Positions 1 through 32,038 are shown, counted from the stretch's first letter. The stretch: 64,000 bases of DNA from Squalus acanthias (GCA_030390025.1 CM059431.1:124994001-125058000), one strand, 5' to 3'. The notes: generated from the letters alone by a model not told the origin. Translations and numbers: made by a program.

Positions 1-97
1 TTCTTTACTACTTCACCTGAGGAAGGGGCGATCGATAGCTCCGAAAGCTTGTGATTTCAAATAAAACTGTTGGACTATAACCTGGTGTTGTGCGACC
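1..97 (+). mobile_element. Penelope-like element terminal fragment carrying a minimal hammerhead ribozyme
   Basis: TCAC-CTGAGGA-A-GGGGC..GCTCC-GAAA-GCTT-GTGA followed by AATAAA and GGACTATAACCTGGTGTTGTGCGAC; near-identical copy at 27079-27167. Confidence 0.7.
13..54 (+). ncRNA. Type I minimal hammerhead ribozyme motif
   Basis: Stem I TCAC(13-16)/GTGA(51-54); core CTGAGGA(17-23); stem II GGGGC(25-29)/GCTCC(38-42); GAAA(43-46); palindromic AAGCTT stem III. Confidence 0.7.
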
Positions 98-458
98 TCT
101 CAATTCTATTTATGAAACCCAGGATCCCGTATGCTTTTTTAACCACTTTCTCAACCTGCCCTGCCGCCTTCAACGATTTGTGCACATACACCACCAGGTG
201 TCTCTGTTCATGCACCCCCTTTAGAATTGTACCCTTTAGTTTATATTGCCTCTCTTCGTTCTTCCTACCAATATGTATCACTTCACACTTTTCTGCATTA
301 AGTTTCATCTGCCACGTGTCCGCCCATTCCACCAGCCTGTCTATGTCCTCTTGAAGTCTATCACTATCATCCTCATTGTTCACTATACTTCCAAGTTTTG
401 TGCCATCTGCAAATTTTGAAATAGTGCTCTGTACACCCAAGTCCAAGTCATTAATTAG
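98..458 (-). mobile_element. CR1 LINE ORF2 reverse transcriptase fragment
   Basis: ORF 75..467: INDLDLGVQSTISKFADGTKLG...WADTWQMKLNAEKCEVIHIG, typical CR1 RT domains 5-7. Confidence 0.9.
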
Positions 459-17747: not shown

Positions 17748-18070
17748 TAAACTTGCATTTATATAGCACCTTTCACAACCACTGGACGTCTCAAAGCACT
17801 TTACAGCCAATTAAGTACTTTTGGAGTATAGTCACTGTTTTAATGTGGGAAACGTGGCAGGCAATTTGCGCACCGCAAGGTCCCACAAACAGCAATATGA
17901 TAATGACCAGATAATCTGTATTAGTGATGTTGGTTGAGGAATAAATATTGGCCAGGACACCGGGGACAACTCCCCTGCTCTTCTTCGAAATAGTGCCATG
18001 GGATCTTTTACGTTCACCTGAGAGAGCAGACGGGGCCTCGGTTTAATGTCTCATCCAAAAGACGAAAGGT
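17748..18070 (-). mobile_element. Deu-domain SINE (SacSINE1/AmnSINE-like)
   Basis: 3' tail GAAAGGTGCTATATAAATGCAAG and core GTTTGTGGGACCTTGCGGTGCGCAAATTG on the minus strand. Confidence 0.7.
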
Positions 18071-18071
18071 T

Positions 18072-20515
18072 CGATACTATACTATTTTGTTTTATGTTCC
18101 TTGATAAATTAATTTTATAGTTCCTCTTTGCCTTACTATTTGTTTTTTTGACTTCTTTCCTAATCCCTTCATATTCTCCTTTATCAAGCTCTCCCCTGCT
18201 GTCCATGTACTTAATGTATGCCTCTTTCCTTGCGCTCAATTTTTCCCTTAAGGCTTTATTCATCCACAGTGTCTCATTAATGTTTAACTTGCTCTTGTTT
18301 ATTAGTGGAATATATTTTTCCTGGACTCTATTGAACACCATTTTAAATGTTTCCCATTGCTGTTCTACATCATTGTTTGCCAATACTGTTGTCCATTTTA
18401 TTTTCCCAAGTTCTATTTTCAGCCCCTCAAAATCAGCTTTTCTCCAATCTATTACCCTGGTCTTTGTCATACCTATGTCCTTCTCAATTATTATCTTGAA
18501 GTGTATATTGCCTAGACATTCCCCTGCTTTTACTTCTCTTATCTGCTCTGGTTCATTCCCCATTACAAGATTCAATAGCGAATCCTCCCTCCTTGGGCTT
18601 TTTACATATTGAGTTAGAAAGGGCCCTGTACCCATTGTAGGAACTCCATTCCCTTATCCCCTTTACCTACCTCTTCTGTCCAATTAATATTTGGGTAGTT
18701 GAAATCCCCCATGATTATTATTCTATGTTTTTTACTAATTTGTCTGCACTTTTTTCTGCCACTTCCCTTCCACTATTAGGTGCTCTGTAGACTACGCCTA
18801 TTAGTGTGATTAATCCTTTATTATCTTTTATCTCTATCCACATGGATTCTATTTCTGTCTTGCTGATAGCTGCATCACTTTTTTCTACTGCCATTATGTT
18901 ATCCCTAATAAGTACAGCTACTCCACATCCTCTTTTCCCCTCTCTATCTTTTCTAAATATGTTAAATCTTGCAATGTTTAATTCTAGTCCTGATTTTTCT
19001 GTAGCCATGTCTCAGTAATCCCTACTATGCCTGGTTCCTCGCAATGCATGATTGCCTCCAGCTCCCCTGTTTTATTACGGACACTGTGTGAATTGTTGTA
19101 CAGACAGATTAACTCATTTTTAATAGGATTTCCTCTCACTTTAAGCTTAACCAGCTTTTTAAATTCCTATTCTATAACTCTATTTATTCCCTGTTGATCA
19201 ATCTCCTTCCTTACTTTACTCTTTCCTATGCTCTCCATTCCTGTTTTGTTTATATTTAGGCTGGTTTCATTTCATGTAGATCCCTCCCCCTGTCTTACTA
19301 GGTTAAAGCCTTTGCCACCTCCCTATTTACCCTTTCTGCTAGGACACGGATCCCATCCTGGCTCAGATGGAGCCCATTCCATCGGTACAGCTCGTTCCTG
19401 TCCCAGTACTGGTGCCAGTGTCCCATGAAAACGAACCCCTCCTTCTCACACCAGCCCTTTAGCCACTTGTTAATTCTCCTGATCTGACTGTTTCTATGCT
19501 AATTTGCACGTGGCTCAGGCAATAATCTGTAGATTATTACCCTCGAGGTCTTGCTTTTCGCTCCTAACTCCTGATACTCCTTCAGCGGGACCTCCTCCCT
19601 GTTCCTACCTAAGTCATTTGTTCCGACATGGACCACGACAACTGGATTTACCCTCCCCCTTTCCAAATTCCTCTCCAGCCACCTCGAGATATCCCTTACC
19701 CTGGCACTGGGTAGGCAACTCAACCTTCGGGATTCTCGTTCTTTACTGTAGAGGATGCTATCTATCCCCCTAATTATAGAATCCCTATCACTACCACATT
19801 TCTATTCTGCTCTTCCCCCCCCCCCCCACCCCCTTGGACAGCCTTCTGAGCCACAGTGTCTTGGTCTGCATTGTGGTTGCCCCCATTGCAGTCTTTCTCC
19901 TTGTCCTCACAGGTAGCAAGTACATCGTACCTGTTGGACAGGACCAGTGTCTGTGGGACCTCCTTCTCAACCTCTCAGAATCACAGAATCACAGAATCCC
20001 CACAGTGCAGATAGAGGCCATTTCGGCCCATCGAGCCTGCACCGACACATATCCCACCCTATCCCCGTAACCCCACGTATTTAATCCCCCTAACACTAAG
20101 GGTCAATTGATCATAGCCAAATCAACCTAACCCGCACATCTTTGGACTGTGGGAGGAAACCGGAGCACCCGGAGGAAACGCACGCAGACACGGGGAGAAT
20201 GTGCAAACTCCACACAGACAGTCACCCGAAGCCGGATTCGAACCCGGGTCCTAAGTCCCCGCTACCCAGCTCCCTAACAGTCACACCCTCCCTTTCCTGA
20301 ACCTGTGCTTTCCTCTGGGGTGTGACTGTATTCTGGATAAAACCGTCCAGAAATTTCTCCCCCTCCCTTATGTGTCAGAGTGTCTCTATCTCGTACTCTA
20401 GCTCAATGACTCTGAGCCGGAGTGACTGAAGGCAGAGACATTTCATGAAGATGTGGAAATCCGGGACAGTCTCGTTGTTCACAAACTCCCACATACTGCA
20501 GTCCCGACACATTTC
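18072..20515 (-). mobile_element. CR1 LINE 5' half: ORF1 (zinc finger + esterase) and ORF2 endonuclease
   Basis: CRDCSMWEF...LRLRVIELE (about 20510-20380); VVVHVGTNDLG esterase motif (19499..19723); IFRKDREGKRGCGVAVLI, IGVVYRAP, PRREDSLLNLVM (APE endonuclease). Confidence 0.88.
19976..20251 (-). mobile_element. V-SINE (HE1-like) inserted in CR1 ORF1
   Basis: B-box GGTTCGAATCC on minus, V-domain GGAGTTTGCACATTCTCCCCGTGTCTGCGTG, CR1-like tail with GATTCT-type repeats. Confidence 0.85.
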
Positions 20516-22250
20516 TTAAATAGCATCAATATCTCCAAATTCTTCTTCCTTTGATTCACCTGCTTCAAAGTCTGCTTAACATATATCAGTAAGATTAGTA
20601 ACACAATTATAATACCCTGAGCAAGCACAAAGCCGTAAGATGCCAACCTCAAGAATGGGTTTTGCCACATTATATATAATTTTGCACCATGGTGTTTCTC
20701 CGAGCTTCCCTATTTTCTTTTCCAAGTACTCATTATCCTGATACAATTGATGTAGATGGCGCACAGAAATCTCGGTTCATTCTACGGTTTTCTTAAGGTT
20801 CAGCCTCAAGGGTGGAATAGGATACCAATAATGTGCTAATGCCCTTTGTGCTTTAGCCTGCAATCCTACATCCGCCATCACCTGTGTTTGGTTATGCAGA
20901 TGGACCGGAGTTAGAACTACATGTCCGACCTTGATCATTTCGGTGGGGGTGATGCAGAAGGAGGATATAGTAACTGGACATGTGATGTGTCCATACTTAA
21001 AACTGGAGGCTGTGATTGTGCCAAAATACCACCCTTTCCCAGCATAACTATGCTTGGTCTGGTCTTTATGCCATTTCTGGATTGCAATTGTACAATTAAG
21101 GATCCATTTATACCAGACAAACCCACATGCAGGGATACTGGCTTCTGTCACCTCACAGCGACATATCCAGGTAGCCTTGTCTAAAGTACAACAGGTCATA
21201 TCAGGGGCCATCCTGGTGTTGTCAATACGTACTAGCTTCCTTGGAAATGGCTCGTATTCTTAATGCATGTCATTTTCTAGTATGCCATTTGATTCTACTG
21301 CCCAAAAGCAAGTTGCCTTATGATTGGTTAGCGCTGGCATGACCAAACTGACTCCTACTATCCCTTTGCCTGTGTATGACAGGAATGACATGCCCAACCT
21401 CCTCAGCTCAAAGGTGGGATGGGAACTCCCTACGATATTCCACTCTGTCAACTGCTCATCAGTTATAAAAGTAGGTACCTTTCCCTGTTCAATGTCATCC
21501 AAACCCTGTTGGATTTGGGAAAGCATAAAGGCTCCGTAAATGCTACAGGTGACCCCTCTGGATGCATCACTAAATGTGGTGGTGTCTTCTTTGATAAATT
21601 AATTAATTTTTAGTTGAATGCCCCTATCATTGCTGACTAAATCCTCTACTGAGAGTAGAACTTGTTGCACCTCCTGTAAACACCCTCCTGTAACCTTATT
21701 CCCCTCCCCTTCATTATTTTCTTAATCTGCGTTCTCTTTTTCTGGTCAGCTTCCCACATAGGCTCAATGTCCATGCAATTTACTCCCGCTAAACTAACTG
21801 CTGCTCCTACACCTGCCCACTCTGCTGCTCCTCTCTTTTTACGCCTCGGAGCTTGTGTCCCAGTTGTGGTGATTGACAGTGGTGTCTCAGTTTGGGACTC
21901 TTGTACGGAGTCATAGTTATTAGGGGTATAGACAGGGCTAGATTCATCAGAAAAATAATTCTGCGAGTTACGGTACAAGGAAACCCCGAGCTTATGCGCA
22001 ATGATTTGTCAATAGAAAATCACATACTTTTCATCGCACAGCAGGGTTGAGAAGCTTACATTGCTGGTTAAACAATACAGGGAGAATTTCATAGAGTATG
22101 TTGTTATATAACATTTTTTCAGAGTCAGAGGCCACCAGTCCATTGGTAGGTCCTTCACCCAACCTAGGGCAACTTCTGGGTTCGGATGAGGCGGTCTGAG
22201 AATGAGTGAGATTTGGTGGTTTCTTCATACTTTTCAGTCTTATTGCAGTT
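20515..22250 (-). pseudogene. env: env: class I fusion glycoprotein, frameshifted
   Basis: GEGPTNGLV...LYNN; furin site RRKKR (21846-21832) followed by fusion peptide GAAEWAGVGAAVSLAGVN; QQGLDDIEQGKVPTFI; Cys-rich region; TM IIIVLLILLIYV and short basic tail. Confidence 0.8.
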
Positions 22251-22344
22251 TGAGTCTACTTTCCATAGAAGGCAGGGGTCAGAGCGTTCTTGGTCTCCTT
22301 CCTTGCTGGATCATATTTAATTAAACATGCATACCAGGCCGAAT

Positions 22345-22479
22345 ATCGTAACACGGTGCTGAGTCCCAACACAGTGCGGTGGCTATGCAGACGAGTGAGG
22401 GGCGCGGTATATTGGGAACTGATGCTTTAGATCAGTATGATGTTGTTATTGATTATTCTAGTTATTCTAGTTAAGAAGC
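22345..22479 (+). pseudogene. pol: pol part 1: protease C-terminus joined by deletion to RT start
   Basis: GRGILGTDALDQYDVVID (ILGxD motif), then LVKK| interrupted by solo LTR. Confidence 0.7.
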
Positions 22480-24168
22480 TGTAAAGTTTCGCAATTATCG
22501 CGATTCAAAATAATGAAAGAGAAACAGATTCGTTTGACCAGTTTATTTAAACGAAATGCTGTCATGATTATAAAGGACACAGAAGCCTGTAAAATGGCCA
22601 CCGCGCATCGTGGCAGAAGCTTCCAGAATTTCAGTGGGCAGACAAGATGGCGTTCGAATATACATTTCAAATATAAGACAGGATCATACTCGATGAACAC
22701 TGATAAAAACAGGATGCAACCTGTTTGCATTTGTGACAATAGCAAAAGATATAAGAGCTGGTATCGTTTTCCATGCACAAGTAAGGACCATTATACGGGG
22801 CAATCGAAGGCCCATCCAGACACATCAAAAGACAAATACCCCCACGGCTCTACAATGAGAGAGCCATTCTCGGGTGATTAAACAAGCATTCGGGGGCCCC
22901 CAAAACCAGTCAGGGAGACGATTCATACGATCCCGGCAGGGCCAACAATGGGGAAAACATTAACGGGTAGTTGGCCAGTTTCAGGTGCTACCGAAACCCG
23001 TTAAGTACAAGAATTGCCCCATGCTGGGAGTTTTGGGCGGCAATATTTCACAAAGGACAAACATTAAGATTTGGGCGGGAGATAAGGGAACACAGCACTA
23101 TAACTATAGACAACAAATGTCCATCGGTCTCTTATTTTCTCTTATCTCTGCGGACTCTTGACTGGGGCTGAACTCTGCTGGACGAGCAGCCTTCTGTGTT
23201 TCTCTGGACTCTGGACTTTTAGCCGCACTGGACGGTTATTCGAATGTTGGGTGGAGCTCAAACGGAACGAGCAGCCTCGACGAAGGCCGGTGACCAGGTG
23301 CACCATCCCGAGGGTCGGTAAACGGTGTCTGGACCCGAAGGCCCGAAGAGAAGAGACGAGATGAGACGAGAAGAAGAGGAGAAGAATCCACGTGCCGCCG
23401 CGGTCAGTAAACCCCGACCGCGCCCGAAAATATACAACCCATTTCTTAAACTCTACAGGTTACTGCACGAACTGGTCAAAGACTCTTCTTCGAATTCTAT
23501 CGACAACTGGTGTCGGTACAGGAAGACTTTTCTTTGAGTTCTACAGCCAGGCCCGACTGCTGTCGAGTTCTTCATGACAACGGGGAGCCCAGCCTGCTTG
23601 TCGCAGCAGCGAAGATAAACAAGTGAGGTACAGAGACCCCTCCAAACACGTGACAGTCAGGCGCTGCAGCGAAACGAGCCGAGTGACTCACTTTAAAATT
23701 CTCTGAAGTATCACGAGTGGTGAGCATGTTTCCCGATCCTACAAATCTAGATGCAGTGTAGGTATTGATAGGGGAGGGTGGTTTTATTAAGGATAAAGTA
23801 TAATGTGTTCCCCTTTTTACGATGTGCCGTGCGTTCTTCATTACCATAGACCAAGCTTTATGAATGTATGTATACTTGTACTCTCGTTAATTTGCGCCTA
23901 TGACATGTACTTCATGATTTTGGACGCTATGCAATAAAGACTTCCATTTCGTACTATTCAACCAGGTCTATTTGAGTTTTCTCTGCATTACTGCTCTCGC
24001 ACCTAAGTCCAGTGTTAGAACCGTAAGGGCGAGTGGGTCGAACCACTCACAGGTGCTTATTGCAACAAGGCTGGCCGGAGACCAGAGCAAGCACTAGTAT
24101 TAGGCAACGAAGGCCTAACCCCGTACCAGCACCACCTGCGATACAAGCACGACACAAAACCCCTTACA
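22480..24168 (+). mobile_element. Solo LTR-like element, copy A (1689 bp)
   Basis: TGTAAAG...CCTTACA termini, 4-bp TSD AAGC, AATAAA at about 23933; splits RT at VKK|PD. Confidence 0.88.
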
Positions 24169-24480
24169 AAGCCCGATGTAGTTGGGGATTGATTGTCGAT
24201 TATCGTAAACTAAATTCTGTCAGCCCCGCCTGCTCACCAGTGGTGAGGGAAACACCAATGTTGTTATCCCAAATCCCACCTGGAGCTAAATGATATTCAG
24301 ACTAGACATAGCTAACGAATTCTGGAGCATACCTGTAAGAAGCGAAGATCAGTACAAATTCAGCTTCATTTTTGAAGATCAGAGTTACACATGGACTTGC
24401 CTGCCACAGGGATTCCATAACGCTCCAACTATCTTTTGCAAGTGAATGGCGAGGGCCATTAAAGGGTTTTCTAAACCTGA
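24169..24480 (+). pseudogene. pol: pol part 2: RT domains 2-4
   Basis: SWGLIVDYRKLNS, LDIANEFWSIP, DQYKFSF, YTWTCLPQGFHNAPTIF. Confidence 0.9.
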
Positions 24481-26985
24481 GGGGGCGATCTTGCCAGCCC
24501 TGGGGAGGCGGGACTGCCGGGAAAATGGCAGAATTTGGGGGCGGGTGCCCAAACCGCCCCCACCCGCCTCCATGCCACTTTCCCAGGAGGCGGGTAGCTG
24601 TCCCGCGCCGGGTCCCGTCTCCTTGGAGGCGGGAAGGGATTAAAGCTGTAAGGGGTTTTTGTCGTGCTTGTATCCCAGACGGTGCTGGTGCGAGGTTAGG
24701 CCTTCGTTGCCTAATACTATTGCTTGCTCTGGTCTCCGGCCAGCCTTGTTGCAATAAGCACCTGTGAGTGGTTCGACCCACTCGCCCTTACGGTTCTAAC
24801 ACTGGACTTAGGTGCGGGAGCAGTAATGCAGAGAAAAACTCAAATAGACCCGGTTGAATAGTACGAAATGGAAATCTTTATTGCATAGCGTCCAAGATCA
24901 TGAAGTACATGTCATAGGTGCAAATTAACGAGAGTACAAGTATACATACATTCATAAATCTTGGTCTACGGTAATGAAGAACGCACAGCACATCGTAAAA
25001 AGGGGAACACATTATACTTTATCCTTAATAAAACCACCCTCCCCTATCAATACCTACACTACATCTAGATTTGTAGGATCGGGAAACATGCTCACCACTT
25101 GTGATACTTCGGAGAATTTAAAAATGAGGCACTCGGCTCGTACGCTGCAGCGCCTGACTGTCACCTGTTTGGAGGGGTCTCTGTACCCCACTTGTTTATC
25201 TTCGCTGCTGCGGCAAGCAGGCCGGGCTCGCTGTTGTCATGAAGAACTCGACAGAACTCGGGCCCGGTTGTAGAACTCAAAGAAAAGTCTTCCTGTTGTC
25301 GGTAGAATTCAATGAAGAGTCTTTCTTGTTGTTATGAGGAATTCGATGGACCCAAAGTGGTTCGTGCAATAACCCGTAGAATTCAAGAAATGAGTTCTAT
25401 ATTTTCGGGCGCGGTCAGGGTTTACTGACTGCGGCGGCACGTGGATTCTTCTTCTTTTCTTGTCATTTCGTCTTGTCTTGTTGGGCCTTCGGGTCCAGAC
25501 ACCGTTTACCGACTCTCGGGATGGTGCACCCGGTCACTTGCCCTTGTCGAGGCAGCTCATTCCGATTGAGCTCCACCCAACATTCGAAGCCGAATCAAAA
25601 GTACAGCAGTCAGCAGCGAGATAAGAGAATAAGAGACGATTCGAGCGAATAAGAGTCGAAAATCAAGAGACTGATGGACATTTGTTCACTATAGTTATAG
25701 TGCTGTGTTCCCTTATCTCCCACTCAAATCTTAATGTTTGTCCTTTGTGAAATATTGGCGCTCAAAACTCCCAGCATGGGGCGATTCTTGTCTTTAACGG
25801 GTTTCGGTAGCACCTGAAACTGGCCAACTACCCGTTAATGTTTTCCCCATTGTTGACCCAGCCAGGATCGTATGAATCATCTCCCTGACTGGTTGTGGGG
25901 GCCCCCGAATACTTGTTTAATCACCCGTCAATGTTTCTCTCATTGTAGAGCCGTGGGGGTATTTGTGTATTGATGTGTCTGGATGGGCCTTCGATTGCCC
26001 AGTACAATGGTCCTTACTTGTGCATGGAAAACGATTCCAGCACTTATATCTTTGCTATTGTCACAAATGCAAACAGGTTGCATCCTGTCTTTATCAGTGT
26101 TTATCGAGTATGATCCAATTTTATATCGAATGTTTATTCGACGCCATCTTGTCTGCCCACTGTATTTCTGGAAGCTTCTGCCACGATGCGCGGTGGCCAT
26201 TTTACAGGCTTCTGTGTCCTTTATATCATGACAGCATTTCGTTTAATAAAACTGATCAAACGAATCTGCTTCTCTTTCGTTAATTTGAATCGCGATAATT
26301 GCAAAACTTTACAAAGCCTATTAACTGCCTGTTAACGGATAGTTAACAGGCAGAAAATAGGATGATCCCCTTTTTGCCCTCACAAGTGCGAGCTTCCCGA
26401 TGGCTCCAAAACCCGCCAGCTCAGCGAGGCGAGTACTGGGTCTGCGGGGGGGGGGGGGCGGTGCAAAAGTGTGGTGTGAAGGTAAGAGATGGGTGCAAGA
26501 GTGTAGAGGTGAGTATCTGAGGTAAGTGCAAAGTGTTTTTAAAATTCTACTTACCTTTGTTTCTTCCTGCAGGCTTCAGTCGGTTTGTATGCGGAGAGTC
26601 TCGGACCTCTGCGTTGGGAATGACAGGTGGCCGTTGCATTCTCAGATGCAACAAACATCTCAATTCTGTTAAAGAAAGATGTTTGATGGGGTCTTGTATT
26701 CAAGACCTCATCAAACTGCAGAGAATGTCGCTGTTTGACAGCTTCACAGAGCTGTCAAATGATGTCAATTCATCTGTCAAAAATTTTTGACAGATGAAAC
26801 GTCATACGTTGACGTGCTCTGCAACTGGATTTCCTTTAATTGGCCTGTTAAGCCCGCTGAGTGGGCTTAACAAGGTCAATCAAGGGAAAATAGCGTGGGT
26901 TGGCTACAAATCGATGGAGGCGGGACATCGACCTGACAAGCAGCAGTCCTGCCTCCAACGCGCCCCCATTCACAAAATTGCCCCC
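24481..26985. mobile_element. Harbinger-type MITE inserted in RT, itself interrupted by solo LTR copy B
   Basis: TIR GGGGGCGATCTTG / CAAAATTGCCCCC, TSD TGA; internal sequence related to MITE 9034-9851. Confidence 0.88.
24647..26313 (-). mobile_element. Solo LTR-like element, copy B (inverted relative to copy A)
   Basis: Reverse complement of 22480-24168 with scattered differences; TSD AAGC on both sides. Confidence 0.88.
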
Positions 26986-27790
26986 TGAGTGTTTATTGCA
27001 GTATGTAGACTATTAGTTATTAACAACAATGAAAGAGGAACATCTCCAATTGTTGGATGAGCTGTTTCAAATATTAAATTCACTTCACCCGACGAAGGAG
27101 CAACAGATCCGAAAGCTTGTGATTTCAAATAAAACTGTTGGACTATAACCTGGTGTTGTGCGACTTCTCAAATATTAAAGGAGCTGAAGTAAAATTAAAT
27201 CTGCAAAAGGCTCAGCTGCTACAGGAACATTTCTGGTATCGCCCATCTCTGCTGTGGAACAGACTCCAGATCAGCACAAAGTACAAATCATTCAGCGATT
27301 ACCTCTACCAGTGTCTAGGACAGCACTTAAGTCATTTTTGGGCTAACAGTGAGCTTTGATTGCAAGTTTTGCAGATCTTGCTAAACCATTGTATGAGTTA
27401 CTTAAAGGAAAGGAAGATGAAGTGCAGTCCCAATGGACCCCACAACACACTGAGGCTGTACTACAACCAACTTGCCTAATCACCCCAGATCCAAGTAACC
27501 CATTCCGCTTAGAGGTAGGAGCAACTGACCAGCATTTGACGACAGTCCTGTATCAAGATGTCCTAGGTAGACATTTGTCCATTGCCTACGCATCACAAAT
27601 ATTAACGGGAGTGGAGAAAATCTACAATCTATGCGAAAGACATTTGTTGGCTACCATTTGGTAATTCCAAGGCCAGTAAGGCAGCAAACGAGGCTGTCCA
27701 CATGGGGTTCCCTTGGCAAGCCTGTGACATTCCGGTTGATGTTGTGACCAAGGAGACACAAGATTATGATCTGTACTCAAACAATAGCAT
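26986..27790 (+). pseudogene. pol: pol part 3: RT active site, tether RNase H, end of second RNase H
   Basis: CLLQYVDY* (mutated YVDD), EEHLQLLDELF, KLNLQKAQLLQ, FADLAKPLYELL, PFRLEVGAT, IAYASQIL, CERHLLA, then GNSKASKAA. Confidence 0.85.
27079..27167 (+). mobile_element. 89-bp Penelope-type insertion with hammerhead motif
   Basis: Flanked by 12-bp TSD TCAAATATTAAA; near-identical to 10-97; core reads CCGACGA. Confidence 0.85.
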
Positions 27791-27799
27791 GGCACCAAG

Positions 27800-29520
27800 A
27801 CAAAAAACCCCATTAATGCCAGCAATTTGTCCAATTTATCATCTGTGGCACTCCATGATGAATCGTATATTGGCCATTCGGAGTATCGGGGCGGAAGGGT
27901 GCCAGGATAGCGATTCCTCCCTGGCCTACACTCTTTAGCAAAGTGTCTCATCTTGCCACTGTTGTAGCACTGTGGCCCCCTGTATCTGGGGCCTGATCCC
28001 CTATTTGGTCCCCAATCATTCTGTTCCCTTGGTTGTTTTACCACCACAGCTGCGGGTCTACTCCCAGTCCTTGAATTCTGTGAACCCCAGTGGATCTAAC
28101 AATATGTCCCTTCACACTTTCCCACTATTTAATAATTCTTCCTTCTTCTCCTTCTTAGGCAGTCCCTCGGAACCGAGGATGACTTGCTTCCACATTAAAA
28201 ATGAGTTCTCAGGTGACTGATGAGTCCAATGCGGGACCTACAGTCTCTGTCAGAGGTGGGGCAGACGGTGGTTGAAGGGGCGGGTGGGTGGGGTGCTTGG
28301 GTTGACGTGCGCGCCTTCCGCTCCTTGCGCTTGGCTTCCGCTTGCTCCCAGCGAAGAGACTCGAGGTGTTCTGAGCGCCTTCCCGGATGCTTCACCTCCA
28401 CTTTGTGCGGTCTTGGGCCAGGGATTCCCAGGTGTCGGTGGGGATGTTGCACTTTTTCAAGGAGGCTTTGAGGGTGTCCTTGAAGCTTTTCCTCTGCCCA
28501 CCTGGGGCTCTCTTGCTGTGTCGGAGCTCCAAGTAGAGCACTTGTTTTGGAAGTCTCGTATCGGGCATGTGAACGATGTGACCCATCCATCGGAGCTGAT
28601 TGAGCGTGGTCAAAGCTTCGATGCTGGGGGTGTTGGTCTGAGCGAGAACACTGATGTTGGTGTGCCTATCCTGCCAATGGATTTGCAGAATCTTGCGGAG
28701 GCAGCGTTGGTGGTACCTCTCCAGTGCTTTGAGGTGCCTGCTGTACATGATAATAAGCCTTAAGATATCACCCCAAGTACTATGCTTATTAACGACCACC
28801 CCCAGTGCCATCTTCACCAAGGGTTGGAACTGACTTAAGAACATTTGCTTAAGGAAATGTTTGTCGCACCTGTTAGGCGGTCGGACCCCAGGGGCCGCAG
28901 ACGGCACGGTAGGCTGTGTTCTTTCATACGCATCAAACAGATGGTTCCCAAAAGCAGTAGGGTGTTTCATCAGTCCCTGTATGGTCCGCCCACAAATCTG
29001 CATTAAATTTAGACCGTTTATTCCTAATAAAGTTACTATCTCTCCTAGGGGCACATCGGACCCCGTCTCCGCCTGGTAAACTGCAGGACCAAGGCACTGT
29101 TTCAAACCACCATCCAGGGCGGTGAGTAAGACGGATTTTAGGTCTGCATCCTCCAATTCCCGGTGTCCCTCTTAAAATCACCCCATGCCCGGGCCAGCGT
29201 AATGGGCTCATCCCCGTCTTTAACCGCCCTAACTCTAACCAGAGCAGCTGCCTCATCTGTCCTGAGGAGTCTACTTTCAGTGTGTTGTGAGATGATCACG
29301 TTGTTCACGTTGCGCCTCACACTGATTGATATCGCATTGACAGGCTGACTCCCCCAATCCCCACAATGGGGATTATTGTAACACGCTGCTTCTCTGCCCA
29401 GAGAATCCCAATCTATGCTGTCTCCATCCCTGCTGGGTCCTCCGGCAGTGATGGCAGAAACAAGAGCTGTCTGCTGTCCCAATTTGTGTTGTAACTCATA
29501 TATCTTCACACAAGCATGGT
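27800..29520 (-). pseudogene. gag: gag, frameshifted, interrupted by an RTE LINE
   Basis: IYELQHKLGQQ coiled coil; KHPTAFGNHLFDAYE; FLKQMFLSQF; zinc knuckle CYNSGKMRHFAKEC (CX2CX4HX4C with C to S) near 27970-27930. Confidence 0.78.
28137..28748 (-). mobile_element. RTE-clade LINE 3' end
   Basis: LKALERYHQRCLRKILQIHWQD...LRWMGHIVHMPDTRLPKQVLY...AQDRTKWR, C2H2-like CPTSDRDCRSRIGLISH, (AAG)n-like tail. Confidence 0.9.
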
Positions 29521-29719
29521 CTCAAAATTTAGCAGTTAAATTATTTAGGGTAGCATTCAGAAATAGTAAAGAATTATATTTCAAAACAATATAAAATGGC
29601 AGATCACATCATGTCCTAACAGTCGCAGGTCTGATTATGTTCTAACACAATGCATGAGTTGATCAGGTAACGGCAGCATGGATTGGGTAAGGCAAGTCGA
29701 TTTTGACAATTTAATATAG

Positions 29720-30215
29720 GAGATTTGATAGAGGTAATTAAAATGTTGACAGAGTGAGTAAGGACAGACAATTTCTTCTGGTTGGCGAATCAGTGATGAT
29801 AGGTCATCAATTTAAAATTGTCACTAAGAAAGTGAGGAGGAAGATTAGGAGAAATTTGTTTATGCAGTGTATTATTGGAGCATGGAATGCTTTGCCACAG
29901 GGAACGATTGAGGTAAAGACCATTGCATCTTTTTAGGGAAATTGGATCAATACTTGAAGCAGAGGAAGCGAGCAAGGCAGTGGGATTAGGATTGGATTGC
30001 TGTTGTAAAGAGCCAGCACAAATGTGATGAGGGTGAAATTCAACTTCATCGATGGCGCTAAACCCGCCTCATTCTCCTTTTCTCTCACTTGAATGGAAAT
30101 TAAAATTGGGTGGGATGTATAACGGGAGGCCGATCTGTTACCACCAATTCTGTGCTCCGCTGAAGTTGAACTTCACCCTCGATGTGTCAAATGGCCTCTT
30201 TCTATGCTGTAAATT
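29720..30215 (+). mobile_element. Degenerate CR1 3' end split by a MITE
   Basis: RRNLFMQCIIGAWNALP and CR1 tail resuming after 30180. Confidence 0.75.
30029..30180. mobile_element. 152-bp MITE
   Basis: 20-bp TIR GAGGGTGAAATTCAACTTCA / TGAAGTTGAACTTCACCCTC, TSD GAT. Confidence 0.85.
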
Positions 30216-31214
30216 TCTGAAGGTCTACAGTTCATATGTAGACACCTTCCTCCAAAGTTGGGTTTGTGCTTATGGATCGTTGAAATAGAAGACTTAATCA
30301 ATGACTATTCAGATTGTTTTTTCCAAATTGTGTTAACGGTCAGAATTCTTTTCCCTAACAAGGTAGTTTCCTAAACGTAATCTGTCATACTTGAAAAAAT
30401 ATAATTTTAGAGGCCAAACTATGTTAACCTCTCTTTTTAACAGTTTCTGGCTTAAAGAAATGCCATTTTGTGTAGATCAATTTTGAATATATTATCCCCT
30501 TTCCTCTACAGAATATCATAGGGGATAAAAATACAAAAACATCATTTACATTTTTTCTCGACTACATAAGTATCAGATACTAAGACAGACACATTTGGTT
30601 TGATCATTTTTACAATCCTAGTTCTGTTATAGCAGAGATAAAAAAAACAGTAATGCTAAACCAACAGCGCATGCTGGAAAACTACTTACCATGTAAACTT
30701 TCTTCCAGTCAACTTATTCTTGTTTGAAAGGAGTAACTTTGATTTATTATGATTAGAAATTGAGGTGAACAGGGTTAATCCTTAACATTAAGACGAGTTA
30801 GGGAACCACAAATGAAGCAAATATGATGAAGCTGCCATTTTGGCAATGCGTCTGATCTTGGCTCTCAAATATTTTATTCATCTACACTCATTTTTCTTTC
30901 CATGGCAATTTTTGTTAGTCATGGTCTAATGACATATGAGCATGGCAAGGTTAACTTCAAACACTCAAGTCCTTGCAAAGGAAACCAGATTGAAGCAGGC
31001 ATGGTAAACCTGTCATTATGGAGATGTGCCCGCGAGAAGTGTTGTGTCGTGTTATCAACCAGAAACAGAATTCTCTGAGGAAAATGAACATTTTATCAGG
31101 AATCAAAGAAATATAAAACACACCACAATATTAAAGCATTGCAAGCCAATTTTAGAGAGCTTTTCTTATTATATGATGAAAAAAACATTACTTTATTCAC
31201 ACGTTGTGAGAAAC

Positions 31215-31300
31215 TAATATATATTTATACTGTATATATAATAGAATAAAACTCTCTATGTATAATAGAATATATATATAATATATATAGAATATAAAAG
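31215..31300. repeat. TA-rich simple repeat
   Basis: Imperfect (TA)n / AGAATATA runs. Confidence 0.7.
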
Positions 31301-31879
31301 ATACTGTTAACCATGAATTCTAAGCAAATGTTTTATATTCTAAATATAAACTGATGGGAAAGCACTGCAGCTTCATCAGCATCCAAAAGAGAAGATAGCT
31401 TCATGTTTCACACTCAACTCTTCATTAGAATTGATTCTATATTATGATAATCTACTGAAATTACCACCTAAATGCCCAGAGAGTTCCTTTAATATTACTG
31501 CAAAAGGGAAATAAGTCTGAGCAATATAGGAAAGTACTTTGAGTGGAAATAGACCAAAGCTAAAGAGTTCTGTTTTCTTTAAGAAGACAAAACTCGTGTA
31601 GTACCAAATTGTACAGGACATAAAGGTTCCTGGTTTGTGCTGAATTAACTTATACAAGCAGGGTAGCAGTGAGATCATTACAGTTGGCGTCAGGATCCCA
31701 GGGCTATGTGCGAAAACAACTACCCATATTTCCCACTCCTATTTGCTTGTCCAGTGGTTAGCCTTGCTAGAAAGTGCACAAGTATGGCAGTCATTGGAGG
31801 AGTGGGTTGGGCTTGATTGTGATGTCCTCTATGATCAGAGAGCTTCCCGATATGACAGTATATAAAGTGTTTTTAATGT

Positions 31880-32038
31880 TAAAACTGTCCCAAGCCACTT
31901 CACAAAAGTGTAAGATAAAATAGATGCCAACCGAAGGAAGCAAAAGAAGGATGGATGAGGCGAGGGTTTTGAAGATCTTAAACGAGGACGAGGACAATGC
32001 GAGTATGGATGGGTTTATTGAAGGAAGTCCAGAATGTT
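31880..32038 (-). mobile_element. L2-like LINE 3' remnant (continues at about 35791-36030)
   Basis: Degenerate match to L2 3' region on both sides of Harbinger-3. Confidence 0.55.

Follow-up and report, generated by a model that had tools for sequence, protein, structure and literature searches.

Retroviruses whose envelope glycoprotein (Env) is of the fusion (F) protein type are not a new kind: sequence analysis placed lokiretroviruses in this class in 2020, and structural work did the same for foamy viruses in 2024. The Env of lokiretroviruses (Wang & Han 2020, PMC7947760) combines an RxKR site, a fusion peptide, a coiled coil, a membrane anchor and kinship with the Pfam family PF00523, all as in the shark family described below. 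The Env of foamy viruses, according to the accessible part of its structural description, has an F-like core (Fernandez et al. 2024, PMC11468914). Here we analyse an endogenous retrovirus (ERV) in a 64,000-nucleotide stretch of the Squalus acanthias genome (GCA_030390025.1 CM059431.1:124994001-125058000; hereafter the window, with positions counted from its first letter), which a first-pass annotation had taken, from the sequence alone, for a lokiretrovirus-like element with an F-type env. The assembly from which the window comes measures 3.7 Gb, and the genomic relatives described below lie in this same genome.

Two other described systems are close to this locus. Foamy-like endogenous retroviruses (FLERVs) are known from cartilaginous fish (CmiFLERV) and from Xenopus tropicalis (XtrFLERV), and the part of the original description available to us places XtrFLERV among the shark CmiFLERVs and reports that only pol was detected in either host (Aiewsakun & Katzourakis 2017, PMC5512871). 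The accessible part of a 2023 paper on shark and lamprey ERVs records no Gag or Env domains, and the ectodomains described from cartilaginous fish by Nino Barreat & Katzourakis (2024) are of the gamma/filovirus type, not F-type. The other system is chicken Ovex1, whose describers did not settle whether its third open reading frame (ORF3) is an envelope (Carre-Eusebe et al. 2009, PMC2717909).

Our analysis showed that the locus is a dead, rearranged fossil copy of an endogenous retrovirus, for which viral function is impossible. Taking its several parts jointly, we consider it likely that the locus is one old minus-strand provirus whose protease (PR)-reverse transcriptase (RT)-tether segment is inverted, that it belongs to a shark, frog and coelacanth clade with the RT motif LPQG (probably the FLERVs), and that its Env is of the F/foamy type. 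What this appears to add to the record is, first, that a shark/frog clade previously published without gag or env has both, the gag with a zinc knuckle and the env of F type; second, an Env that sequence profiles link to paramyxovirus F, to foamy gp130 and to loki-type Env; and third, the placement of chicken Ovex1 ORF3 in the same Env family. The interest therefore lies in the envelope type of the shark-frog clade and in the link to Ovex1, not in the decayed locus itself.

Envelope gene, fold and the link to Ovex1

The env fragment of the window contains two in-frame stops and at least three frame changes, and its N-terminal 220 or so codons are missing. It opens with a conserved F2-like segment that aligns to residues 222-262 of a relative elsewhere in the genome, and the corresponding part of the structural model of that relative has a predicted local distance difference test score (pLDDT) of about 90. 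The sequence motifs listed in the first-pass annotation were all found in the window by inspection of ORFs and by motif scans, namely RRKKR and the Gly/Ala stretch in env and ILGTD (within GILGTD) and LPQG in pol, and the region downstream of the cleavage site runs through a Cys-rich part and a heptad-like stretch to the membrane anchor. Neither CX6CC nor CWLC occurs in the window env frames or in the ectodomains of seven of seven relatives checked, in agreement with the earlier remark that CX6CC is absent. The short F2 reported at the same time, with cleavage about 140 codons from the N-terminus, turned out to be an effect of truncation: the window env begins at residue 222 of 784, and six relatives have 236-427 residues between the N-terminus and the cleavage site.

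When a 160-aa frame of the window env was used as a query, 150 of 150 scored genomic places matched at E <= 2e-19, a similarity therefore far beyond chance. First-look candidates in the genome number 6981 for the env family and 10303 for the pol family. In one relative (L011/L012) the genes all lie on a single strand: gag with an intact CCHC knuckle, PR, RT, RT_RNaseH_2, RNase_H (PF00075), Integrase_H2C2 plus rve, and an uninterrupted env frame of 784 codons. The sub-lineage of the window is rare, its env DNA finding only three other loci, at 70-83% identity. In two of these (L019 and L021) the genes are collinear, and L019 is the best match for the window env (83% DNA), the env start (83%), PR (82%) and the nucleocapsid (NC) region of gag (63% aa). 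The nearest env relatives come from Scyliorhinus, Chiloscyllium and Mustelus, which agrees with the probable shark origin proposed in the first-pass annotation, and a protein homologue search with env returned only two shark proteins. Matches of the env family are also clustered, with dozens on contig C3 at about 116.3-118.4 Mb and others on contig C26 at about 8.2-11.7 Mb, which suggests tandem or segmental amplification of fragments.

A profile of 13 env rows (A1), compared with the Protein Data Bank (PDB), gave paramyxovirus F0 chains as its top six matches (E 0.03-0.16), all over the same region. An exhaustive protein search with a profile of this type returned 77 proteins at E <= 1e-3, including proteins of frogs (Pelodytes, 1e-100; Mantella), the shark Mustelus and chicken (LOC422926). 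Moreover, the matches P0067 (from a cyprinid fish), P0071, P0072 and P0078 themselves match PF00523 at 1e-6 to 1e-8, and aligning A1 with the PF00523-positive proteins in hhalign gave 97.7% (E 1.7e-12), the 411 aligned columns reaching from the segment before the cleavage site to domain II. A 53-row profile (A3) reached the fusion subunit of foamy gp130 (8rm1_D, E 1.1e-5; 8rm0_A, E 7.9e-5), a match that the distant rows of A3 may drive. With TLV_coat the relative's env gave no match at E <= 1, and the gamma references score 1e-164 to 1e-237 on that family. The proteins P0032 and P0038 carry an env-like segment joined to cadherin domains and to an F-box, respectively, and are probably gene-model artefacts across ERV fragments.

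The ectodomain of the relative was modelled with AlphaFold2 (AF2) from the A3 alignment at a pLDDT of 71.7. In Foldseek searches of the PDB with this model, the best match was 1ztm, the F protein of human parainfluenza virus 3 (3.3e-11), followed by the F proteins of Langya virus, respiratory syncytial virus and Newcastle disease virus; 232 matches reached E <= 1e-3, and the foamy Env 8rm1 came in at 1e-6. In VIA, 1ztm gave Z 11.7, 8dmj gave Z 11.4 (root-mean-square deviation 5.1 over 282 residues) and foamy 8rm0 gave Z 8.5 (5.4 over 277 residues), with F or foamy Env accounting for 50 of 50 entries among the matches listed. Matches in BFVD were to arthropod mononegavirus glycoproteins, baculovirus F/Ld130 (1.5e-11) and feline foamy gp130. 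The fold, the profile matches and the failure to match TLV_coat or CX6CC support placing this Env among the F-type class I fusogens, as against the gamma-type Envs, and bear out the first-pass annotation on this point. The model also matched the predicted Env structures of walleye epidermal hyperplasia virus 1 (Q9WHI8, 6.9e-10) and walleye dermal sarcoma virus (A4GTG3, 1e-7) in BFVD; judging by these model-based matches, epsilonretroviral Env may also be F-type.

Paramyxovirus and pneumovirus F proteins (PF00523), the best structural matches to the model, share with it the order of cleavage site, fusion peptide, heptad repeat A (HRA), domains III, I and II, heptad repeat B (HRB) and anchor. 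They differ in that sequence similarity is marginal (the E values of 0.03-0.16 given above), in the length of the pre-cleavage part, which is 236-427 residues in the shark relatives and about 100 in F, and in that the shark-family Env is encoded by a retrovirus. Foamy gp130 (8RM0/8RM1) has the same F-type core and a long membrane-anchored subunit after the furin site, but it carries a receptor-binding domain between the F2-like part and the furin site that has no counterpart in the shark family, where only about 40-60 residues separate the two and the extra residues, some 220, are at the N-terminus. In the once-active virus, the precursor would have been cut by furin at R-R-K-K-R, which would leave the membrane-anchored subunit with a free Gly/Ala-rich fusion peptide at its beginning; the long helix (HRA) and the membrane-proximal helix (HRB) would then refold to a hairpin, merging the membranes. 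Homology, fold, the order of genes in relatives, the inversion described below and the position of the RT are shown by our comparisons; cleavage, trimerisation and fusion activity are what we infer for this Env from its motifs and predicted fold.

The shark env profile also found Ovex1 ORF3 of chicken (P0047, LOC422926, 873 aa), with a hmmsearch value of 2.6e-10, and hhalign aligned the two at 98.2% (E 2.7e-14) over 356 columns, from the basic cleavage site to a membrane-proximal W-W. Ovex1 ORF3 is likewise without CX6CC, CWLC and the immunosuppressive motif (PMC2717909), and many Galliformes retain the frame at its length of 873 residues. On these sequence comparisons, Ovex1 ORF3 appears to belong to the same env family as the shark element, although Ovex1 is conserved in birds at one locus, with expression in the gonad, and the window element has decayed and belongs to a multi-copy family. 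Among the papers listed by our literature search, none was seen to name both Ovex1 and lokiretrovirus.

Placement of the reverse transcriptase

The RT tree was built from 61 rows and 290 columns with a caulimovirus root. Its rows included shark-like Pols from Xenopus, other frogs, coelacanth, bowfin and a turtle; lamprey and teleost proteins with the loki motif; six gypsy-type rows; IMG/VR retrovirus genomes labelled gamma, alpha or lenti by their env Pfam families; and 15 genomes of 11.6-13.2 kb with the foamy RT motif, one of them RT-identical to feline foamy virus Pol. The loki rows were recognised by CPFGY(S/A)NSP, which they share with the published consensus, and not by published accessions. 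In this tree the window joined two shark copies (support 100/95), these joined P0122 of X. tropicalis (100/99), and that group joined coelacanth and frogs (96/93). The clade of the window falls within a group of 45 LPQG retroviruses (100/99), while the eight loki-type RTs form a separate group (100/100). Forcing loki together with the shark-frog clade cost 22.2 log-likelihood units (lnL) and was rejected by the approximately unbiased (AU) test (p 0.0123).

An RT phylogeny had been named beforehand as the test of the lokiretrovirus assignment, with a position inside the canonical retroviruses as the outcome that would refute it, and this is the position in which the window RT was found. LPQG had moreover been taken as fitting loki. 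The loki Pol consensus sequences, in the part of the published supplement available, read CPFGY(S/A)NSP and I-Y-V-D-D, and the string LPQGFHN has zero occurrences in that part (PMC7947760), whereas the sequence here is LPQGFHNAP.

Among solved structures, the best matches to pol were foamy PR-RT (2.6e-68), murine leukaemia virus RT (8.5e-65) and Ty3 (5.9e-57), and the integrase of the family was nearest to that of prototype foamy virus (1e-22). The integrase relatives of the family are annotated as NYNRIN-like, NYNRIN presumably being the same gene as CGIN1. The shark/frog/coelacanth clade has a canonical LPQG/YVDD RT, a dual RNase H, a zinc-knuckle Gag and a NYNRIN-like integrase. Two of these traits, both claimed for the window from the start, survive there in damaged form. 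The zinc knuckle of gag, described as CCHC, is present (27928-27969, minus strand) but degenerate, reading C-x2-S-x4-H-x4-C where L011 has an intact CCHC; and the RT catalytic motif, given as YVD[D], is recognisable at about 27002-27016 (plus strand) but reads YVDY followed by a stop.

Order of the pieces and alternative readings

ORFs, motif scans and blastx against the collinear relative place PR, RT and tether (22262-27661) on the plus strand of the window but gag (about 29518-27877) and env (22189-20515) on its minus strand. The parts are not collinear, and the layout differs from the one first described. With the L011/L012 proteins, blastx matched env residues 222-781 over the whole env span just given, RT and tether at 24180-27661 (plus) and gag at 29518-28914 (minus). 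Most of the tether, RNase H, integrase and the first 221 env residues had no counterpart in the window in this comparison. At the junctions, PR adjoins the env start and the tether adjoins the gag end, the order that an in-place inversion of the PR-to-tether segment gives. Contigs from three public runs (two studies) each span the 868 nt of 21600-22467 unbroken, showing no joint and 19-21 differences, so that the env/PR junction cannot be put down to an artefact of the assembly used here.

Pfam searches of 17 window ORFs gave only RVT_1 and RT_RNaseH(_2), all on the plus strand. RVT_1 matched the RT fingers/palm fragment at E 5e-9 (blastx 72-81% to the relative) and RT_RNaseH_2 matched the RT palm/tether piece at E 1.3e-11, with blastx support. 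No Pfam family matched the gag, PR or env ORFs, whether of the window or of L011, and a Cas2 match among the window ORFs (E 0.005) was dismissed as noise. Two direct-repeat methods found no pair of long terminal repeats (LTRs) in 18000-32000, and consequently no LTR dating was possible. A 1.7-kb inverted repeat was considered as the cause of the pol inversion and rejected, since its arms lie inside the inverted segment and not at its ends; the arms are moreover two solo LTRs of an abundant family. The history we propose is that the ancestral provirus lay on the minus strand and that its protease-RT-tether segment was inverted in place. The provirus has also lost the remaining tether, RNase H, integrase, the first 220 or so env codons and recognisable LTRs, and has since taken up at least five insertions: a pair of solo LTRs, pieces of 0.65 kb and 90 bp, and part of a LINE (long interspersed nuclear element).

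The lineage is probably the published shark/frog FLERV clade (CmiFLERV/XtrFLERV), as judged by hosts and tree pattern rather than by sequence comparison, because the shark plus Xenopus pairing, the foamy-leaning pol and the F/foamy-type env all fit. The hosts match (cartilaginous fish and Xenopus tropicalis), and the odd sister pairing of shark and frog is reproduced here at 100/99. CmiFLERV and XtrFLERV were published with pol only, whereas the relatives found here have a CCHC gag and an F-type env frame of 784 codons. A 2023 J Virol paper on endogenous foamy viruses of cartilaginous fish (Wang, Chen & Cui) may have described the env before.

Several observations weigh against the inverted provirus with an F/foamy-type Env and a FLERV-like pol. 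The read contigs cover one of the two inversion junctions (env/PR), the other being at 27662-27876. For Env, the only Pfam signal in the relative is a sub-threshold match to Fusion_gly (E 0.037; 12.8 bits with a cut-off of 29.8), and Foamy_virus_ENV gave no match with the env of the family. A first AF2 model, made from the whole 784-residue env with a shallow 13-row alignment, was poor (pLDDT 43); the later fold is a prediction made from a relative that shares 33-41% identity with the window env, rather than from the window's own sequence, and its TM-scores to F structures in Foldseek are only 0.37-0.48. As to pol, the position within the LPQG clade is a polytomy at the base, and holding the foamy viruses with the shark-frog clade costs 6.9 lnL (AU p 0.054), so that a 'foamy-like' status of the clade is neither shown nor excluded; the AU groups were, moreover, named after the tree had been seen. 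Finally, the Gag of true foamy viruses is not known to have a CCHC knuckle (Cys-His box), and the Gag of this family does, intact in L011 and degenerate in the window.

That the locus consists of three unrelated gag, pol and env fragments, lying side by side by chance, would account for a pol piece on the opposite strand and for the LTRs that were not found, and the great abundance of the family, as counted in env and pol candidates above, lends this some plausibility. We nevertheless regard it as improbable, considering that the three pieces are complementary in content and placed as a single inversion predicts, that only three other loci exceed 70% env DNA identity in this rare sub-lineage, and that gag NC, PR and env are all best matched by the same rare copy, L019. 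A lokiretrovirus with an F-type env in a cartilaginous fish seems to us very improbable. In its favour, the env shares homology with PF00523-positive, loki-type teleost proteins (hhalign 97.7%; P0067, P0071, P0072, P0078), the RT of the family shares the motifs W-R-L-T-I-D-Y-R-K-L-N and N-G-F-W with loki, and its NYNRIN-like integrase relatives recall the tie that the loki authors draw between loki integrase and CGIN1 (PMC7947760). The family also has gag, pol and env with a dual RNase H, the tether being still recognisable as RT_RNaseH_2, but this is a trait common to all retroviruses and does not discriminate. On the other hand, the window RT lies across the deepest retroviral split from the loki-type RTs, with the supports and the AU rejection reported above, and has LPQG, not CPFGY; the shark-family env matches PF00523 far more weakly (E 0.037) than loki is reported to do (2.2e-7); the shark family showed no smc gene; and the screen of the loki authors, in the part of it available, found zero of six chondrichthyan genomes positive, including two shark species of the env family (PMC7947760). 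Least credible of all is that the element is an errantivirus-like Ty3/Gypsy retrotransposon whose env is of the baculovirus F type, a reading we would hardly entertain: the model does match predicted structures of baculovirus F/Ld130 (1.5e-11) and the tether does match RT_RNaseH families typical of Ty3/Gypsy, but the window RT falls inside the clade of retroviruses plus loki (100/99), apart from the six gypsy-type rows, the relative L011 has the added retroviral RNase H (PF00075), and a survey of env-carrying Ty3/gypsy elements, as far as available, lists none in vertebrates (bioRxiv 10.1101/2023.10.26.564294).

A different kind of alternative concerns not the identity of the inverted provirus but the source of its envelope. 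The F-type env of the shark/frog clade could have been acquired through recombination, with a lokiretrovirus or a mononegavirus-like virus as donor, instead of being inherited from the common retroviral ancestor. Env swapping is well known among retroviruses, the nearest named groups differ for the two genes (a canonical RT, but an env that reaches loki-type proteins in hhalign), and for Ovex1, too, its authors suspected that Gag-Pol and ORF3 had different sources (PMC2717909). F-type Envs appear, however, in several deep retroviral branches, the model matching foamy gp130 and the predicted Env structures of walleye epsilonretroviruses as well as loki-type proteins, and we think capture rather unlikely. 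It is possible, although we would not wager on it, that the F/foamy-type Env is the original retroviral envelope and not a peculiarity of loki, that the gamma-type is a later replacement, and that Ovex1 ORF3 is a surviving member. If this were true, an F-type Env would be common to loki, foamy viruses, walleye epsilonretroviruses and the shark-frog-coelacanth clade, and Ovex1 ORF3, which is expressed in the embryonic left gonad, would be a candidate domesticated F-type fusogen. The question posed in the loki paper, which envelope the first retroviruses had, is now testable with trees.

Feature coordinates, insertions and repeats

Coordinates of the proviral pieces and of later insertions in the window.
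Feature	Position	Strand	Remarks
env fragment	20515..22189	-	residues 222-781 of the 784-residue relative (L012), by blastx
Membrane anchor	20578..20646 (about)	-	shifted frame; aligned with the anchor of relatives
Heptad-like stretch	20700-20776	-	precedes the membrane anchor (ORFs)
Gly/Ala-rich hydrophobic fusion peptide	21784..21831	-	immediately after RRKKR; relatives keep G-x-x-E-W-x-G-I-G-A
Furin-type cleavage site RRKKR	21832..21846	-	aligned with R-x-K/R-R of relatives
Conserved pre-cleavage (F2-like) segment	22067..22189	-	C-P..G-P-x-N-G-L-V ... L-Y-N ... P-V-x-F-N
Protease fragment	22262..22479	+	GILGTD at 22409-22426; inverted relative to gag and env; DNA match to collinear L019
Solo LTR of another, abundant family	22480..24168	+	TG..CA, 1689 bp, 4-bp duplication AAGC on both flanks
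RT fingers/palm fragment	24173..24475	+	LPQG at 24401-24412; one frame change
Nested foreign DNA within RT	24476..26965	.	G+C-rich piece, inverted solo LTR 24647-26317, 0.65 kb more
Further 0.65-kb insertion	26318-26965	.	inside RT
RT palm, thumb and first 64 tether residues (old RNase H)	26966..27661	+	several in-frame stops
gag nucleocapsid region	27877..28032	-	63% identity over 52 aa to the same-lineage copy L019
LINE-derived fragment in gag	28200..28747 (approximate limits)	-	identity read from ORF translations
gag (capsid-like) fragments	28748..29518	-	blastx/tblastn to L011 gag, 29-57% identity

The 1.7-kb inverted repeat consists of the two solo LTRs listed in the table, both of which begin with TG and end with CA. 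Their family has 5968 first-look candidates in the genome, and the 40 that were scored showed 88-96% identity. The first of the two is absent from contigs of three public runs (two studies), in which position 22479 joins 24173 directly; its insertion is polymorphic or lineage-specific, and the LTR family has therefore been active recently. The flanks of the inverted solo LTR (24643-24646 and 26318-26321) read AAGC on the plus strand, the same as those of the first, a coincidence with a chance of about 1 in 256; a target preference or a linked event is possible.

RT also contains a foreign insert of 90 bp (27082-27171), a short dispersed repeat that is 88% identical to window positions 10-103 and keeps the RT frame because its length is a multiple of three. 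Homology to gag ends at about 28748, at the edge of the LINE-like fragment. As read from translations, LINE-like minus-strand fragments are of two kinds, one endonuclease/RT-like at 18700-19800 and one ORF2-tail-like at 28200-28747. Outside the provirus, window positions 18074-18930 match another locus in the genome (L020) at 88%.

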